From contig JBHIEC010000001.1 of the NCBI GenBank assembly GCA_046760425.1, positions 325-64,324 on the forward strand: a DNA stretch of 64,000 nt. The letters run 5' to 3'. A program made the translations under genes and the position numbers. This DNA comes from Anaerolineae bacterium (lineage in GTDB: Bacteria > Chloroflexota > Anaerolineae > JBHIEC01). Under the pieces are notes generated by a model. That model worked only from the letters and a program-made list of their open reading frames with translations. It did not search any database and had not been told where the DNA came from. Shown in pieces: positions 323 to 36,400 of this stretch. Numbering within the stretch: the stretch's first letter is position 1; every line of letters starts with the position of its first letter.

Positions 323-394
323 CTTCGTCCTCCTCTTAGCGGGTAATCTCCTTCCTGAGAGTTGGTGATGGAATGCAGGACTCCAGGCCATAGA

Positions 395-460
395 GCGCCG
401 CATAAATGACGGCGCCTGGCTAGGCCTGGGGAGCCAGGCGGCGTGCTTTCAGCCGCCGCC
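395..460. repeat. Copy A of a three-hairpin intergenic repeat family (copies also at 20744-20806 and 36276-36342)
   Basis: GCGCCGcataaatgaCGGCGC, then CCTGGCT..AGCCAGG, then GGCGGCgtgctttcaGCCGCC. The copies differ by compensatory stem changes (GCGCCG/CGGCGC here, GCACCG/CGGTGC in copy C). Confidence 0.6.
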
Positions 461-470
461 TTTGCTCCTC

Positions 471-1814
471 TCAGCGGTTAGTAACGTAAGGAATGGTCTG
501 AGGCCCCTCAGGCAGGACGCAGATGGTTGCTTCGGGGCCGTACTGGTCCATCAGTTGGGCCAGAGTCTCCTCGATGCTGTGGCAAGGGATGAGCAGGGCA
601 TCCCTGATCTCCTGATCGGAGAGATAGGACGTCTTGAGGTAGACGTCGGCCTTGAGCTGGATCTGGGCCTGGACCTGGGCCTCCCACTGGTCCTGCATCA
701 GGAAGCCGGGCGAGTGGATGATCTCCAGGAGCTCCCGGGGGCTGTCGGCCATGTGGAGGATGTTTTTGTATTGCCCGTGGTCGGGGATACCATCCCAGCA
801 CTCGGCGGCGGCGATGATGCTCCCGCCCTCCCTGACGATCTGGGCGGCGGCCGACATGCCTTTCACCGTCTGATAGAGGTTGAGGTCCAGGGGGTACCCG
901 GAGTTGGTGGTGATCACGATGTCGAAGGGGGCGGGCACGGGGGCCATGGCCGTGCTCCTCACGAACTCCACCCCCGCCCGATGGGCCTGCCAGACGTCGC
1001 CAGCGAAGACGCCTGTGATCTCCCTGTGTTTGTTGAGGGTCACGTTAAGCAGGAAGGTCGGCTCCGTCCTGGCCGCCACCTCGCGGATCTCCTCCCAGAT
1101 AGGATTGCCCTCCGTCACGCCCCAGGTAGCCCTGGGATGTCCGATCATCCTGGCATCGTGGTTGCCCAGGATGGCTCCTTCGTCGGCCAGGCCCGGGAGC
1201 ACCGCCTTGGGCCCGCCACTGAAGCCGGCGAAGAAGTGGGGCTCGATGAAGCCAGTCAGGATCTTAACTGAAGCCTCCATATACTCCCGGTTCAGGCTCA
1301 CCCGATGGCCGAAGCTGGTCTGACCCTTGAACGTGCTCACCCGTCCCGAGCCCTTCTCGAACCCGTGCGGCGCGACAGACGGGTGAGCACGTTCAACCAC
1401 AGGCACCAACCGGTCCTGGTCCCAGGCGTCGTGCTGCACCACCCGATAGCCCTCCAGGATGTCCGGCCCCAGCATCCCTGCCAGCTCCTCCTGGGTGTTG
1501 GGACGGTGAGTGCCCAGGGCGTTGATGAGCACGATGTTCTCCCGGGGGACGTGGTCCAGTTGGGCCAGGAGAACGGGCAGCACCCGGTGGTTGGGCATGG
1601 GGCGGGTGAGGTCGCTGAAGACCACGGCCACCGTGTCCTGGGGCCTGACCAGGTCGCGCAGGGGTGGCGTGCCCAGGGGGGCGCTCAGAGCCGCCTCGAT
1701 GGCCGCCGCTTCGTCGGGCAGACCCGCCGCGAACTTCGGCTCCAGCACGGTGACGTTCTTATCGGGCAGCTCAACCCATAACCCTTCTTTGCCATAAGCC
1801 AGCTTAACCCTCAT
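471..1814 (-). CDS. larA: Nickel-dependent lactate racemase LarA family protein (DUF2088)
   Basis: 447 aa ORF with LarA-family length and composition. Recognised by overall similarity only. Confidence 0.65.
   Translation of the reverse strand: MRVKLAYGKEGLWVELPDKNVTVLEPKFAAGLPDEAAAIEAALSAPLGTPPLRDLVRPQDTVAVVFSDLTRPMPNHRVLPVLLAQLDHVPRENIVLINALGTHRPNTQEELAGMLGPDILEGYRVVQHDAWDQDRLVPVVERAHPSVAPHGFEKGSGRVSTFKGQTSFGHRVSLNREYMEASVKILTGFIEPHFFAGFSGGPKAVLPGLADEGAILGNHDARMIGHPRATWGVTEGNPIWEEIREVAARTEPTFLLNVTLNKHREITGVFAGDVWQAHRAGVEFVRSTAMAPVPAPFDIVITTNSGYPLDLNLYQTVKGMSAAAQIVREGGSIIAAAECWDGIPDHGQYKNILHMADSPRELLEIIHSPGFLMQDQWEAQVQAQIQLKADVYLKTSYLSDQEIRDALLIPCHSIEETLAQLMDQYGPEATICVLPEGPQTIPYVTNR
1327..1395. 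repeat. Perfect 19-bp inverted repeat with a 31-bp spacer, lying in frame inside larA
   Basis: TTGAACGTGCTCACCCGTC ... GACGGGTGAGCACGTTCAA. Encodes roughly ERAHPSVAPHGFEKGSGRVST inside the LarA ORF. Confidence 0.7.
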
Positions 1815-15160: not shown

Positions 15161-15194
15161 AAGCCCCCGTCCTTAGGGACGGGGGCTTTTCGCC
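15161..15194. terminator. Bidirectional rho-independent terminator
   Basis: AAAAGCCCCCGTCC ttag GGACGGGGGCTTTT. Perfect GC-rich stem flanked by A/T runs on both strands. Confidence 0.7.
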
Positions 15195-15777
15195 ACCCCC
15201 GCGGTACCACCCTATTTGGCATACCGCCCACTCCGTGGGGTACGTGTTCATACCCCCGTCCGTGTAACGGTGGACGAAACCGGCCAAGTCTACTTGCTTC
15301 GCACATTCGTAATCCGTAAACTCGTCACGAATCTACGAATTACGATCTACGAATGTACGAGCTTTCGGTTGGCGGCTCCGGAAGGATTTTCAGCGAGATC
15401 ATCGCGCCCGGCTCGCAGCCATATGTCGGGCTCTCTGTAGCGACTACCCTCGCCTACTCGTTTCCATCATCGCCTTTGGCTCGAATGTGACACTATTATG
15501 ACACAAAACGGCGGATTTGTCAAGGGCAAAAGCAAAGCCAACAGGCCCTCGTGCCTGCTGGCTCCCTTTTTTTCTGAGGCACGCCCCGCTGGGCCGTGTG
15601 CCGGGATGGGTTTTGAACCTGCAAGCGCAGGTGGGTGCCTACCGCCGGTTTTGCCCCCTAGGGGGCAGCCCCTTTAGAGATTGGCCCCTAAATTCAGGTG
15701 TTGGCTCAAAACTCTGTCGCGCATCACGTGCACAGCAGGGCGCCTCGCCTATATCATACCACAAAATGCCAAAAAAA

Positions 15778-18906: not shown

Positions 18907-20652
18907 ATGAGCAAGATCCTGCGCGTCAATATGACGGATTTGACAGCCAAGTACGAGGACGTGCCGGAGAAGTACAAGAACATGGGCGGGCGCTGGCTGA
19001 CCTCCAGCATCGTCTGCGACGAGGTGCCACCCTTGGCCCATCCCCTGGGGCCTAACAACAAGGTGGTGCTGGCCCCCGGCATCGTCACCGGCACGGCGGC
19101 CCCCACCAGCGCCCGTGTTTCGGTGGGTGGCAAGTCCCCCCTCACCGGCACCATCAAGGAGACCAACGCTGGCAGCGGCTGGCCCCAGAGCGTGGCCCGC
19201 CTGGGCATCAAGGCCATTGTGGTGGAGGGGCAGCCCCAGGAGAAGGGCAAGTTCTGGCTGCTGAAGGTTGATAAGGATGGGGCGGAGCTTCTTCCCGCCG
19301 ATGAGTGGGTAGGCAAGGGGCTCTACGAGGTCTTCCCCCAGCTCTTCGACAAGTTTGGCAAGAAGGCGAACATCATGGGCATCGGCGTGGCTGGGGAGAT
19401 GCAGATGGCTATGGCTGGGGTGTGCTTCAATGACGAGAAGGGACGCTCAGCCCGCTATGCTGGCCGTGGCGGGATGGGGGCGGTGCTGGGGAGCAAGGGG
19501 CTGAAGTTCATCGTCGTTGACAGCACTGGCGCCCCGGCCGCTATCCCCATGGCTGACAAGCAGCTCTTCGAGCAGGGCCGCAAGAAGCTGACCGAGGCTC
19601 TGCGCACCCACGACATCACCAAACCCAAGGGAGCCCTCAACACCTATGGCACGGCGGTGCTCGTCAACATCATGAACGAGGCTGGGGGCTTCCCCACCCG
19701 TAACTTCTCCAGCGGGCGCTTCGAGGGAGCAGCCAAGATCTCCGGCGAGGCTATCTTCGAGGGGAACAAGGAGCGCCTGGGGAAGGAACTCTACAACCAC
19801 GCCTGCAGCCCCGGCTGCATCATCCAGTGCTCCAATGTCTGGCACAAGCCCGACGGCAGTGAGCACGTCTCCTGCCAGGAGTACGAGTCGGTCTGGGCCC
19901 TGGGTGCCAACTGCGGCATTGACGACCTGGACGTCACCGGCGAGCTGATCTGGCTGTGCAACGACTACGGCGTGGATACCATCGAGGCCGGCGGCACCAT
20001 CGCCGTGGCCATGGAGGCGGGGCTGGCCGAGTTTGGCGACGGGGACAAGGCCATCGAGCTTATGCACGAGATCGGCAAGGGCACCCCTCTGGGCCACGTG
20101 CTGGGCAATGGGGCGGCCGTCACCGGCAAGGTCTTCGGGGTCGTCCGCGTGCCTCACGTCAAGGGGCAGAACATGCCGGCCTACGAGCCGCGGGCGGTTA
20201 AGGGCATCGGCGTGACCTACGCCACCTCCACCATGGGTGCCGACCACACCTCTGGCTACACCATCGCTCCCGAGATCCTCAGCGTGGGTGGCAAGGCCGA
20301 TCCCTTCGCCGTGGAGAAGGGGGAGCTGTCCCGCAACTTCCAGGCAGCCACGGCCTTCATTGATTCCACGGGCCACTGTCTCTTCATCGCCTTCGCCATT
20401 CTGGACATTGCCGAGGGCTTCGAGGGGATGATCGAGGAGTGCAACGGTGTCCTGGGCACCGACTGGACTGGTGATGACGTGACCAACATTGGTCTGGAGA
20501 TTCTGAAGAAGGAGCGGCAGTTCAACGAGGCGGCTGGCTTCACCAAGGCCGATGATCGGGTGCCGGAGTTCATGACCTATGAGAAGCTGCCGCCCCACAA
20601 CACTGTCTGGGACGTGCCGGAGGAGGTGCTGGACAGCGTCTACGCTTTCTAG
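18907..20652 (+). CDS. Aldehyde:ferredoxin oxidoreductase family tungsten enzyme, paralog 1
   Basis: 581 aa. N-terminal MSKILRVNMTD...GGRWLTSSIV is typical of the AOR family. Confidence 0.85.
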   Translation: MSKILRVNMTDLTAKYEDVPEKYKNMGGRWLTSSIVCDEVPPLAHPLGPNNKVVLAPGIVTGTAAPTSARVSVGGKSPLTGTIKETNAGSGWPQSVARLGIKAIVVEGQPQEKGKFWLLKVDKDGAELLPADEWVGKGLYEVFPQLFDKFGKKANIMGIGVAGEMQMAMAGVCFNDEKGRSARYAGRGGMGAVLGSKGLKFIVVDSTGAPAAIPMADKQLFEQGRKKLTEALRTHDITKPKGALNTYGTAVLVNIMNEAGGFPTRNFSSGRFEGAAKISGEAIFEGNKERLGKELYNHACSPGCIIQCSNVWHKPDGSEHVSCQEYESVWALGANCGIDDLDVTGELIWLCNDYGVDTIEAGGTIAVAMEAGLAEFGDGDKAIELMHEIGKGTPLGHVLGNGAAVTGKVFGVVRVPHVKGQNMPAYEPRAVKGIGVTYATSTMGADHTSGYTIAPEILSVGGKADPFAVEKGELSRNFQAATAFIDSTGHCLFIAFAILDIAEGFEGMIEECNGVLGTDWTGDDVTNIGLEILKKERQFNEAAGFTKADDRVPEFMTYEKLPPHNTVWDVPEEVLDSVYAF

Positions 20653-20743
20653 GGCAGCGGTGTGACAAAGAGGGGCTCGGTCATGAGATAGCCGGGCCCT
20701 CTTTGTTTGGTAGTCTCCTTGTTGGGTGTTGATGGCCACAAAG

Positions 20744-20806
20744 GGCGGCGGATAAATCACGCCGCCTGGGTAGAACACGCCCAGGCACCGTCATTCATGC
20801 GGTGCC
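20744..20806. repeat. Copy B (reverse orientation) of the three-hairpin intergenic repeat family
   Basis: Reverse complement reads GGCACCGCATGAATGACGGTGCC TGGGcgtgttctaCCCAGG CGGCGTGATTTATCCGCCGCC. Confidence 0.6.
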
Positions 20807-21244
20807 ATCATTATCAACACCTCTTCACTGGGTCACCAACACGATAGGGGGAGACTACCCTTTGTTTGCGTCACCGCAAATGCGGCAACCCTCAGGCGGC
20901 CTCTTAACCTCGATGTTCTCTTGGAGCGGCTCCCCGAAGACACATGCGCACGCCCTTGCGGAAGATGTTCAGGCTGGCGAGCGCGGGTCCCACCCCGTCG
21001 TGCATTCCCGCGCGATGCGCCGCCGCTCCTCCTCCTGGGCTGCCGTCACCTGGGCCAGTTGTTGGCGCAGGATGGCCAACCGCTCTTCGTGCAGGCGGGC
21101 GTTCTCCAGGGCCGGGGTGGCGCTGTGGGCTGCGGTTTACTTCATGGGTAACCTGAGGACCTGCCAGGCTTGACCTCGCCCTCGTCAAGCGATATAATTC
21201 CAGCACGCCAGGCGGGCGCTCATTCTCAAGGCGAGGAGGGAGGC

Positions 21245-23932: not shown

Positions 23933-25792
23933 CTACGGCCACAGTTCCTGGGCTACGTAGCTCAATCCCAGCTTCTCCAGGGTCTCCGGCAAGGGTTTGC
24001 TCGTCTCCTCGTCCCAGCCCATGTGCTTGTAGTAGTCGCGCACCATCTGGTCATACGAGGGGGCGATGCTCACCCCCTTGGCCGGCCCATCCACCGGCGC
24101 CTGCGCCAGGCGGGGCGAGATGATGTCCTGCTCCGGGGAGAGGCCGTGCCGGACGTTGAAGGCCCGCTGCAGGTTGACGATCCTCCTCCCGACCTCCAGC
24201 GCTTCCTCAGGGGTAAAATCCCAGCCGGTAGCCGCGCTCAGGGTGTCAGTGATGATCTGCAACCTGGCTCCTAGAAGGAACATGCACACCCCCAGCGTAT
24301 CGTTGAACTGGGATTTTGGCGCCCCCTTGCTCAGGCCCTTGGGAACACCCTCCACCGAGAAGGGGGGCAGAGGCTCAGGATAGCCGATGTCCGGGTCGGG
24401 CATCAGGTCTGGCACCAGTCCCTCGAAGGAACCCATATCGGAGACGGATTGGGCGAACAAGATACCCCACATCCCCCGGGGATCATGGGTATGGGGGCCG
24501 ATGCCCTTCTTGGTGTAGACGGCGAAGTTAGGGGCCTCTCCGCCGATCTTCTCGGCGGCCCGCATCACTCCCTCAGCCAGCACGTCGCCGAACCCTTCCC
24601 GGTGGGCGATCTTGTGCAAGAGAGCCTTCACCGCCTCAGGGTCTCCCCAGACAAGCTCCAGCCCATCAAGGTCCTCCTTGGTGATCAGGCCCTTCTCGTA
24701 GCACTCCATGGCCAGGCTGACCACCCAACCGCCCTCCTTGACGTCCATCCCCAGGCGGTCGTTGACGTTGGTGAGCATCACAGCTGCGCCAGGGTCGGTG
24801 ATGCCTACCAGGGAGCTCCAGGCCGCCATGTCCTCGTATTCCGGCTCCTCGCCTTCGAAGCCCTTGTAAGGGCCCTCGGTGACCGTCACTATGTGGCAAT
24901 GGGCCATGGGACAAGCGTAGCAGGGTCGGGGCCTCAGCTTAAAGGTCTGGCGAATGTAGTCGCCGGTGAACTTAGGGTGCTCGGGGAAGAGATTGGTGGT
25001 CAGGTTCCTGACCGGAAGCCAGCCCATCTCCGCTGCGGCGGAGAAATAGCCGAGCGTGCCAAGGGAGTAGACGACGCTGCCCAGGGGCGACTGCTTAGCA
25101 CTCTCGAACCACTCCTTGGCCAGCTCCTTCACCTTCTCTTCATCCTTGATCGGCACCTCCATTTTCCCATGCACGGCGATGGCCTTGAGCTTTTTGGAGC
25201 CCATCACCGCCCCCGGCCCATTGGTGGAAGCGATGTGTCCCTTGTCGCCGCAGATGCCGGCGAACTTGACCAGGTTCTCGCCCGAGGGCCCGATGCAGGC
25301 CACGCTCAGCTTGGGTTCCCCCAGCTCCTCTTTGAGCAGATCCTCAGTCTCGTAGGTATCCTTGCCCACCAGGTGGCTGGCGTCACATAGCTCCGCTGTG
25401 CCGTCGTGGACCCAAAGGTAGACCCACTTGGGCGAAGCGCCCTGGACAACGATGGCATCGTAACCGGCAAAGCGGAGCCGGGCGCCGAAGAAGCCGTTGG
25501 CATGGGTGGCCGTGAGGAGATTGGTCAGGGGTCCCCGCGTCACCACAGCGTAGGTACCGGAGCCCGGTGCCCGGGTGCCACCCAGAGGGCCGCTGGCGAA
25601 GATCAGGCGGTTCTCGGGATCAAAAGGCTCAACACCGGGGGGCACCTCGTCGTAGAGGATCTTGACCCCCAACCCCGTGCCGCCCACAAACTTCCTCAGG
25701 TACTCCGGGTCGAACTGCTCCTCGCTGATTTCCCCCTTGGTCAGGTCCACCCTGAGGATTCTGCCCGTATACTCATCTGCTCTAGCGACCAT
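23933..25792 (-). CDS. Aldehyde:ferredoxin oxidoreductase family tungsten enzyme, paralog 2
   Basis: 619 aa, MVARADEYTGRILRVDLTKGEI.... Confidence 0.85.
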   Translation of the reverse strand: MVARADEYTGRILRVDLTKGEISEEQFDPEYLRKFVGGTGLGVKILYDEVPPGVEPFDPENRLIFASGPLGGTRAPGSGTYAVVTRGPLTNLLTATHANGFFGARLRFAGYDAIVVQGASPKWVYLWVHDGTAELCDASHLVGKDTYETEDLLKEELGEPKLSVACIGPSGENLVKFAGICGDKGHIASTNGPGAVMGSKKLKAIAVHGKMEVPIKDEEKVKELAKEWFESAKQSPLGSVVYSLGTLGYFSAAAEMGWLPVRNLTTNLFPEHPKFTGDYIRQTFKLRPRPCYACPMAHCHIVTVTEGPYKGFEGEEPEYEDMAAWSSLVGITDPGAAVMLTNVNDRLGMDVKEGGWVVSLAMECYEKGLITKEDLDGLELVWGDPEAVKALLHKIAHREGFGDVLAEGVMRAAEKIGGEAPNFAVYTKKGIGPHTHDPRGMWGILFAQSVSDMGSFEGLVPDLMPDPDIGYPEPLPPFSVEGVPKGLSKGAPKSQFNDTLGVCMFLLGARLQIITDTLSAATGWDFTPEEALEVGRRIVNLQRAFNVRHGLSPEQDIISPRLAQAPVDGPAKGVSIAPSYDQMVRDYYKHMGWDEETSKPLPETLEKLGLSYVAQELWP

Positions 25793-36275: not shown

Positions 36276-36342
36276 GGCACCGCATAAATGACGGTGCCTG
36301 GGTCGTTTTTCACCCCCAGGCGGCGTGATTTCATCCGCCGCC
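36276..36342. repeat. Copy C of the three-hairpin intergenic repeat family
   Basis: GGCACCGCATAAATGACGGTGCC TGGGtcgtttttcaccCCCAGG CGGCGTGATTTCATCCGCCGCC. Confidence 0.6.
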
Positions 36343-36400
36343 GACCGCCACTGTAAAAGACGAAGACCTCAACACGAGGTCTCTCGCCATCGAAAGTCCG

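Follow-up and report, generated by a model that had tools for sequence, protein, structure and literature searches.

Correia/NEMIS elements of Neisseria and ERIC/IRU elements of enterobacteria are bacterial MITEs that form structured RNA inside transcripts. Roles as RNA-decay barriers or in intercistronic processing have been reported for REP, ERIC and Correia elements. The BOX elements of Streptococcus pneumoniae are modular repeats with variably present modules and with stem-loops close to gene starts. Target duplications of 8-9 bp in length are typical of staggered-cut transposition, and HUH (IS200/IS605) transposition makes no target duplications. In the phylum Chloroflexota, the GTAG-23 REPs of Thermomicrobium are the one case of a small mobile repeat that we found (PMC3733652), and apart from these our literature search returned no such repeat described for Anaerolineae or Chloroflexota.

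Here we analyse a repeat of three consecutive hairpins that occurs three times in a stretch of 64 kb from an Anaerolineae bacterium (the window, i.e. the whole stretch of DNA that was analysed) and that apparently constitutes an undescribed MITE/REPIN-like family. We consider it likely that the copies are members of a family of small, mobile, non-coding repeats in Anaerolineae and related Chloroflexota, whose complete units would be moved in trans by a transposase and whose core would be kept as an RNA structure.

Three copies in the window and the state of their insertion sites

The original prediction had placed three copies of the element in the window, and all three were recovered at 394-416/435-460 (+), 20784-20806 (-) and 36276-36342 (+), referred to below as copies A, B and C. 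A degenerate pattern describing hairpin 1 matched exactly these three places, with no match expected from dinucleotide-preserving shuffles, and a pattern for hairpin 3 gave the same result. A covariance model built from related copies (R1) and run unfiltered over the entire window returned only copies A, B and C, at 79-82 bits, the next best match scoring 14 bits. In each copy the three-hairpin module measures 64-70 nt. Folded as RNA, every copy forms three consecutive hairpins on either strand (z = -2.6 to -4.9), and three hairpins are obtained with single-stranded DNA as well. The compensatory change anticipated for hairpin 1 is real, copy A reading GGCGCCG/CGGCGC versus GGCACCG/CGGTGCC in copies B and C. 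A second compensated variant distinguishes hairpin 2 of copy A (TGGCT/AGCCA versus TGGG/CCCA). The predicted extent of 66 nt proved too short for the repeat in copies A and B, whose conserved arms reach 342-468 and 20709-20859, respectively (Table 1).

Table 1. Positions of the parts of copies A, B and C in the window. Related loci outside the window carry L numbers.
Feature	Positions	Strand	Sequence and basis
Copy A, right target-site duplication	334..341	-	CGCTAAGA in gene orientation; direct repeat with CGCTGAGA
Copy A, right arm	342..393	-	TIR GGAGATTACC at 342-351; inner motif CACCAAC at 361-367
Copy A, three-hairpin core (3-2-1 in gene orientation)	394..463	-	R1 78.9 bits; folds; originally predicted as 395-460
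Copy A, left target-site duplication	469..476	-	CGCTGAGA; alignment to the empty site of L094/L095 and comparison with the full-length L057 copy
Copy B, left target-site duplication	20701..20708	+	CTTTGTTT(G); in the T-tract of the AOR gene terminator
Copy B, left arm	20709..20740	+	TIR GGTAGTCTCC at 20709-20718; inner inverted repeat GTTGGGTGTTGATGG; pairs with the right arm
Copy B, three-hairpin core	20741..20806	+	R1 81 bits; folds; originally predicted as 20744-20806
Copy B, right arm	20807..20859	+	CCATCATTATCAACACC; CACCAAC at 20834-20840; TIR GGAGACTACC at 20850-20859
Copy B, right target-site duplication	20860..20867	+	CTTTGTTT(G); relatives hold a single copy
Copy C, core only	36276..36345	-	R1 82.2 bits; orthologous site filled in L090/L091, doubled in L093, empty in L092

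Copy B is a complete unit of 151 bp with 10-bp TIRs (GGTAGTCTCC/GGAGACTACC) and a target-site duplication of 8-9 bp. Folding of the segment 20700-20870 (-74.7 kcal/mol, z = -5.2) pairs the two arms in a long stem that encloses the three hairpins. The gene upstream encodes an aldehyde:ferredoxin oxidoreductase (AOR), and two relatives display the site without the insertion. In L085, the closest relative (AOR 89% identical), the site is empty and holds a single target, CCCTCTTTGTTTC meeting CCTACCACAAATGCGG at the junction. In L087 (AOR 86% identical, syntenic) the corresponding junction is that of TCTTTTTGTC with CGTCACTACAAACGCGG, the T-tract of the terminator being joined straight to the sequence that follows the right-hand direct repeat in the window.

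The other neighbour of copy B is a ThiF/MoeB-like remnant (window ~20861-21240, -) of which only 24 aa are left (..IEVKRPPEGCRICGDANK), a decaying pseudogene convergent with the AOR gene. Longer ThiF-like pieces have been kept in the relatives (L085:5707-6255, L087:11790-11960). Since its right neighbour is this decayed, convergent remnant, only the upstream gene is co-oriented with copy B. Farther on, a strong sigma-70-like promoter, TTGACC-17-TATAAT (21170-21198), stands ahead of MoaD/Ub-Mut7C-like genes.

Copy A follows a LarA-like gene and precedes a gene for a PK_C-domain protein. On its two sides the insert of 127 bp has CGCTGAGA and CGCTAAGA. The left duplication includes the stop codon (TGA, 471-473) of the LarA-like gene, and the right one is followed by the RBS and ATG (322-320) of the PK_C-domain gene. 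Of the two arms, the right one survives intact with its TIR. A deletion has removed the left one, so that only GAGCAAAG separates the core from the left duplication. In L094/L095, whose LarA is 85% identical, the empty site reads AACCGCCAGGAGGACGAAGATG, and the LarA stop codon and the next RBS are adjacent. Copy A, too, is an insertion, with a duplicated target, an empty site in a relative and a lost left arm. The arm motif CACCAAC-N-GGAGAYYACC occurs in the window in copies A and B only, with no occurrence expected, and is also common to the related copies L057 and L041.

Copy C has the MeaB terminator (36383-36363) on one side and the RBS and ATG (36249) of a histidine-phosphatase gene on the other. 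Neither arms nor a TIR nor a clear duplication are recognisable at copy C, where only a doubtful pair, GTCTTTTAC and GTCTTAC, was seen. Its orthologous sites differ in content. L092 (His_Phos 82% identical) shares the terminator upstream and lacks the core, L090/L091 (80% identical) carry a core at the same place as copy C, and L093 (76% identical) contains at least two tandem cores with a period of 83 nt, the contig ending inside the array (L093:1-150). Both tandem cores of L093 share the same hairpin-1 mutation (C5 to G), and their duplication is thus recent.

These observations can be set against the general definition of MITEs (PMC11602168). The units are non-coding and 127-151 bp long (MITE range, 50-800 bp), and they are flanked by target duplications within the range of 2-10 bp at copy B (CTTTGTTT(G)), at L057 (TGAAATCA) and at copy A (CGCTGAGA/CGCTAAGA). 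Empty sites are available for all three window copies (L085 and L087 for B, L094/L095 for A, L092 for C). Hairpins 3 and 1 form the inverted doublet of short imperfect palindromes that characterises REPINs.

Conservation, orientation and probable transcription of the core

In gene orientation the core begins with hairpin 3, with the consensus GGCGGCG(G)-AUGRAAUCR-CGCCGCC. It is followed by a short hairpin 2 (UGGG..CCCA) with a variable loop and by hairpin 1, GGCNCCG-UCAUUYAUG-CGGN'GCC. Hairpin 3 is a diverged version of hairpin 1 in inverted orientation, both representing one hairpin unit of ~23 nt, and the core is therefore pseudo-symmetric and resembles a REPIN doublet. The reverse strand of the window copies still scores 41-56 bits with R1 (41-60 bits over all copies).

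Covariation was assessed in an alignment of 22 distinct cores from Chloroflexota MAGs and metagenomes, in which the three-hairpin structure comprises 23 pairs. Standard pairs occupy 93.7% of the cells, versus 39-47% with the 3' partners displaced by 1-3 columns. Seven of the 23 pairs have changed on both sides, a count that a single one of 500 shuffles attained. At the variable N-N' position of hairpin 1, C-G is found in nine cores, A-U in six, G-C in five and U-G in one. Hairpin 3 exchanges G-C with A-U and A-U with C-G, and the fourth pair of hairpin 2 occurs as G-C, C-G and A-U. The results were alike for a smaller set of 19 cores. Selection for base pairing in the core is supported by these patterns. 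The two 9-nt loops of hairpins 3 and 1 are strongly conserved in sequence, and this strict conservation suggests a sequence-specific partner, possibly a protein or an RNase.

A measure of the constraint comes from site C. Between the window and L090, the three genes around this site show 80-89% protein identity and 73-83% identity at four-fold sites. The two sequences do not differ at any of the 24 nt of hairpin 3 or the 22 nt of hairpin 1, loops included; the hairpin-2 loop and the other intergenic DNA are unalignable. With a neutral divergence of ~25%, the chance of 46 unchanged positions is ~2e-6 (0.75^46). Together, these values indicate that the hairpin core at site C is under purifying selection. 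Overwriting by other copies through gene conversion is unlikely here, because the orthologues share site-specific features, the hairpin-3 loop ATGAAATCA and A-T at the variable pair, both of which are absent from window copies A and B. Copy C is armless and presumably cannot transpose, and we infer that its conservation reflects a host-level constraint and not the needs of transposition.

Further copies of the element and covariation among them, on which the original prediction hinged, were thus both found. The selection on secondary structure that it had proposed is supported by the covariation in 22 distinct copies and by perfectly conserved hairpins at an orthologous site despite ~25% four-fold divergence.

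The prediction had also described the copies as opposite in orientation to their flanking genes. This is an artefact of the strand chosen for reading: read as hairpin 3, 2 and 1, each of the three runs the same way as the genes next to it. Copies A and C lie on the minus strand and copy B on the plus strand, each with the local gene direction. The downstream gene is co-oriented with the element at 24 of 31 independent sites according to heuristic ORF calls, and at most of the remaining sites it is the upstream gene that shares the orientation of the element. The bias tracks transcription and not replication, because the window copies on opposite strands each follow their local genes. This orientation bias suggests that the element acts in the transcript. 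Several copies, to judge from their position, are certainly transcribed in sense, given that copy A splits a tightly linked gene pair and that in L090 the MeaB stop codon lies in the hairpin-3 loop.

Some of the evidence would also fit a function at the level of DNA, of the kind proposed for REP/BIME, in which cruciforms or single-stranded hairpins bind a host protein (a nucleoid-associated protein, gyrase or a recombinase). The hairpins are equally stable in DNA and RNA, the element is pseudo-symmetric, and the conserved 9-nt loops could belong to such a binding site. Moreover, wobble pairs gave no significant strand signal in the 22 cores, with 14 cells of the G.U type against 8 of the A.C type in gene orientation, so that G.U is not in excess over A.C. 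A near-symmetric site should work either way round, yet 24 of 31 sites are co-directional, and no candidate protein is known. We therefore regard a DNA-level role as improbable.

The neighbours of the element share no common theme. The genes flanking copies A, B and C are mutually unrelated, and housekeeping genes of many kinds are found at other loci. Among 133 ORFs flanking copies, no recurrent protein or transposase family emerged, only ordinary housekeeping genes, and no transposase with matching ends came to light. In the loci of the relatives (L085:13608-15686; L087:1500-2152; L090:12399-12998 and 19691-20618), small gene pairs of the toxin-antitoxin and HEPN/nucleotidyltransferase types abound (PIN, RHH, PhdYeFM, ParE, PemK, HEPN), and L087 has a BglI/MwoI-like restriction-modification pair in addition. 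All of these pairs are unlinked to the repeat.

No sigma-70-type promoter or intrinsic terminator was called inside the window copies. A CTGACA-16-TATTTT match in the right arm of Ardenticatenales copies was spotted by eye. The comparison with Rfam proposed along with the original prediction yielded no family match for any copy. At gathering thresholds, the Rfam 15 scan of the window reported only a T-box and a 6S RNA, both elsewhere than the copies. Permissive scans of the three copies gave chance-level matches and one sub-threshold SgrS match (28.4 bits, gathering threshold 37), which falls on the antisense strand of copy B and arises from hairpin 3 plus a CUUUGUG that resembles a terminator. 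The T-box leader (15172-15479, -; 94.7 bits) adjoins the 6S RNA gene (15579-15744, -; 69.3 bits), and a tRNA-Arg(CCG) gene is located at 24394-24477 (-). All three are ordinary features, useful in marking the chromosome as Chloroflexota or Firmicutes-like.

In sense direction, the distance from the end of the element to an RBS downstream is 10-30 nt in many copies, and the hairpins are stable and covarying, as would suit a cis-regulatory RNA (riboswitch or leader) of the downstream gene or a free-standing small RNA gene. Several findings make such an RNA very improbable. The downstream genes are unrelated (a PK_C-domain protein gene, the ThiF remnant with MoaD-like genes, a histidine phosphatase gene), and relatives possess the same genes at empty sites without the element. 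The copies have neither a promoter nor a terminator of their own and match no Rfam family, and their TIRs and target-site duplications show that they arrived by transposition. A riboswitch or leader was rejected on the grounds of the unrelated downstream genes and of the element missing from orthologous loci. A discrete ~70-nt small-RNA gene was rejected for want of a promoter, terminator and Rfam match, and also because copy A lies within an operon, filling the space from a stop codon to the next RBS. Among the three identities that had been offered originally (a small RNA, a REP-like element or protein-binding structured DNA), the REP-like element thus came closest, and the discrete small-RNA gene found no support.

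Three further identities were tried and discarded. A small peptide was considered on account of a 38-aa ORF that spans the element in Ardenticatenales; in other copies the frame is interrupted by stop codons and by indels in the loops. Integron attC sites, whose RYYYAAC/GTTRRRY core sites bound arrayed gene cassettes, do not fit, as the copies lie 16-20 kb apart between housekeeping genes, GTTGGGT is present only in copy B, and a direct target duplication is not expected of them. An intrinsic terminator was dismissed because no U-tract follows in sense; in antisense, hairpin 3 is followed only by CUUUG, and a good T-tract exists only in L072.

Family distribution, arm types and the possible mode of transposition

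The family was surveyed by a scan of one genome per species, by a differently anchored metagenome scan and by an R1 search for diverged copies. The full module was found in MAGs labelled Ardenticatenales (two), Anaerolineales, Caldilineae and Anaerolineae and on metagenome contigs, with one copy on a short contig binned as Bacteroidota (L057). The remaining matches of the genome scan were chance matches inside genes. Seven more real copies came from the metagenome scan, and R1 added further diverged ones. No matches to the repeat were obtained in plasmid, phage and viral collections. The Ardenticatenales MAG binchicken_co172_209 carries copies on ~20 contigs, where units of ~150 bp stand in tandem arrays of up to five (L038:1249-1979 with five, L064:6975-7190, L068:1-198). 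Because many contigs end inside a copy (L005, L021, L044, L068), the repeat fragments the assembly. The available 37 kb of L085 and L087, the closest relatives, held no copy, and the distribution of the family is therefore patchy.

In its complete form, represented by copy B and L057, the core sits midway in a palindromic unit of ~150 bp that ends in 10-bp TIRs (GGTRGTCTCC) and is flanked by a duplication of 8-9 bp. L057 shows the same architecture as copy B, with TIRs and the direct repeat TGAAATCA. The TIRs, for which at least ~10 bp would be expected of a MITE, match at 10 of 10 positions in copy B and at 9 of 10 in L057; copy A retains one arm and copy C none. TIR-type arms occur in the window and in L057, L060, L076, L041 and L080. 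In the Ardenticatenales arm type, 13-bp direct repeats (ATTTTCATAACAG) take the place of the inverted repeats, and the Anaerolineales have another arm type. The core is thus constant across orders and the outer arms are lineage-specific, similarity beginning and ending exactly at the hairpins.

Several side observations concern the arms and the contexts of individual copies. The terminal motif of the Ardenticatenales units (ATTTTCAWAACAGGAGG-N7-ATG) is also found by itself ahead of genes that have no core nearby (L051:~2490, L043:~4783), and the same Ardenticatenales MAG has solo arms of either arm type (L043:~5590, L008:~793-830). These solo arms and motifs may be preferred targets, excision footprints or remnants. 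The GC-rich copies (0.64) of L057 (2,989 nt, GC 0.50) and L080 (GC 0.49) reside in contigs whose GC content lies clearly below that of the Anaerolineae loci, a mismatch that points either to mis-binned contigs or to horizontal spread. In L076:3702-3791 (-), an extra 20-nt hairpin, GCCTGCC-CTGG-GCGGCAGGC, is nested in the hairpin-3 loop, an insertion within an insertion.

The sharp limits of the core raise the question of what the mobile unit is. The bare core could itself be mobile, as a REPIN-like REP doublet moved as single-stranded DNA by a RAYT/IS200-type (HUH, Y1) transposase, with the 150-bp TIR form being a secondary carrier or a palindromic context. In line with this, hairpins 3 and 1 are inverted copies of a ~23-nt unit (hence the reverse-strand scores of 41-60 bits), similarity between lineages is bounded exactly by the hairpins while the flanks are unrelated, copy C is a core without clear TIR or duplication at a site that is empty in L092, and tandem cores exist in L093 and L038. 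REP dimers within longer palindromes have been reported in other bacteria (PMC3733652). Against it, the repeat has neither the GTAG nor the CGTC tag of the two REP superfamilies (PMC3733652). In our alignments no conserved GTAG or CGTC stands beside the hairpins, and CGTC follows hairpin 1 only in the Ardenticatenales variant. A tblastn search with IS608 TnpA, an IS200-like transposase and the E. coli RAYT did not detect a Y1 transposase, either in the window or among 98 loci (~360 kb around copies), a weak negative as the queries were approximate. Three insertions (B, L057 and A) have duplications of 8-9 bp, and the orthologous conservation with site-specific features points to host-level selection and not to the turnover of a REPIN population. 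On balance, transposition of the bare core seems unlikely to us.

The preferred reading, a MITE-like unit that carries the core, would work as follows. A DDE-type cut-and-paste transposase would move complete units in trans, making cuts staggered by 8-9 bp. After insertion the arms would decay (copy A has lost one, copy C both) and the core would be retained. Transcribed in sense as part of the mRNA, the core hairpins would do something useful, or would at least be tolerated, between cistrons. The most plausible role would be that of an RNA-decay barrier, or of a processing or insulating structure between the upstream stop codon and the next RBS. As to the enzyme, both the 8-9 bp duplication and the first bases of the units (GGTAGT, GGTAAT, GGTGGT) fit IS1 ends (GGTRATG...). 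In-register alignment of the arms with the ends of IS1A from E. coli K-12 was no better than that of shuffled arms.

One feature runs counter to a classical MITE, in which conservation would be expected at the ends: in this family it is the core that stays constant, and the arms vary by lineage. It is conceivable, and we offer this as a tentative reading, that the core is a host-selected intercistronic RNA module which is recognised by a dedicated protein or RNase, spread by transposition and kept after the arms have decayed. If this were true, the core would be a mobile, ready-made post-transcriptional control element.

Comparison with known repeat families

The family offers a clean example of filled and empty sites, target duplications and decaying arms. 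Unusual is that the inner hairpin core is more conserved than the transposon ends and is under selection at a copy that is old and immobile. Should the core work in RNA, transposition would distribute a ready-made structural element between genes. In practical terms, the family breaks metagenome assemblies, with contigs ending inside copies, and its members can be mistaken for small-RNA genes.

The repeat shares with Correia/NEMIS and ERIC/IRU elements a length of 100-160 bp, a non-coding and palindromic sequence and, in its complete copies, TIRs and a target duplication. As with these elements, there are many intergenic copies, often co-transcribed with their neighbours, insertion is polymorphic and orientation matters. 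It differs from them in having no sequence similarity, a duplication of 8-9 bp instead of TA and a host phylum, Chloroflexota, of its own. Moreover, the conserved part is the inner three-hairpin core and not the terminal repeats, the arms are variable between lineages and lost in old copies, and no partner transposase is known.

With REP/REPIN/BIME sequences (PMC3733652, PMC3116915) the repeat has in common GC-rich imperfect palindromes of ~23 nt, arranged as an inverted doublet with a short spacer. Like them, it is sometimes found in tandem and lies between genes of one transcription unit, and some REP dimers likewise reside in longer palindromes (PMC3733652, PMC3116915). Unlike REPs and REPINs, it is devoid of a GTAG/CGTC tag, no RAYT was found, and complete copies have TIRs and target duplications. 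Unlike a REPIN, the doublet folds as three hairpins and not as one long hairpin, because its two halves are only ~70% mutually complementary.

The sequence is unrelated to that of BOX elements, which have no such target duplication or TIR. Like BOX, whose mobilisation is equally unexplained, the repeat is modular, here in the order arm-core-arm, with modules that are variably present and with stable stem-loops near gene starts.
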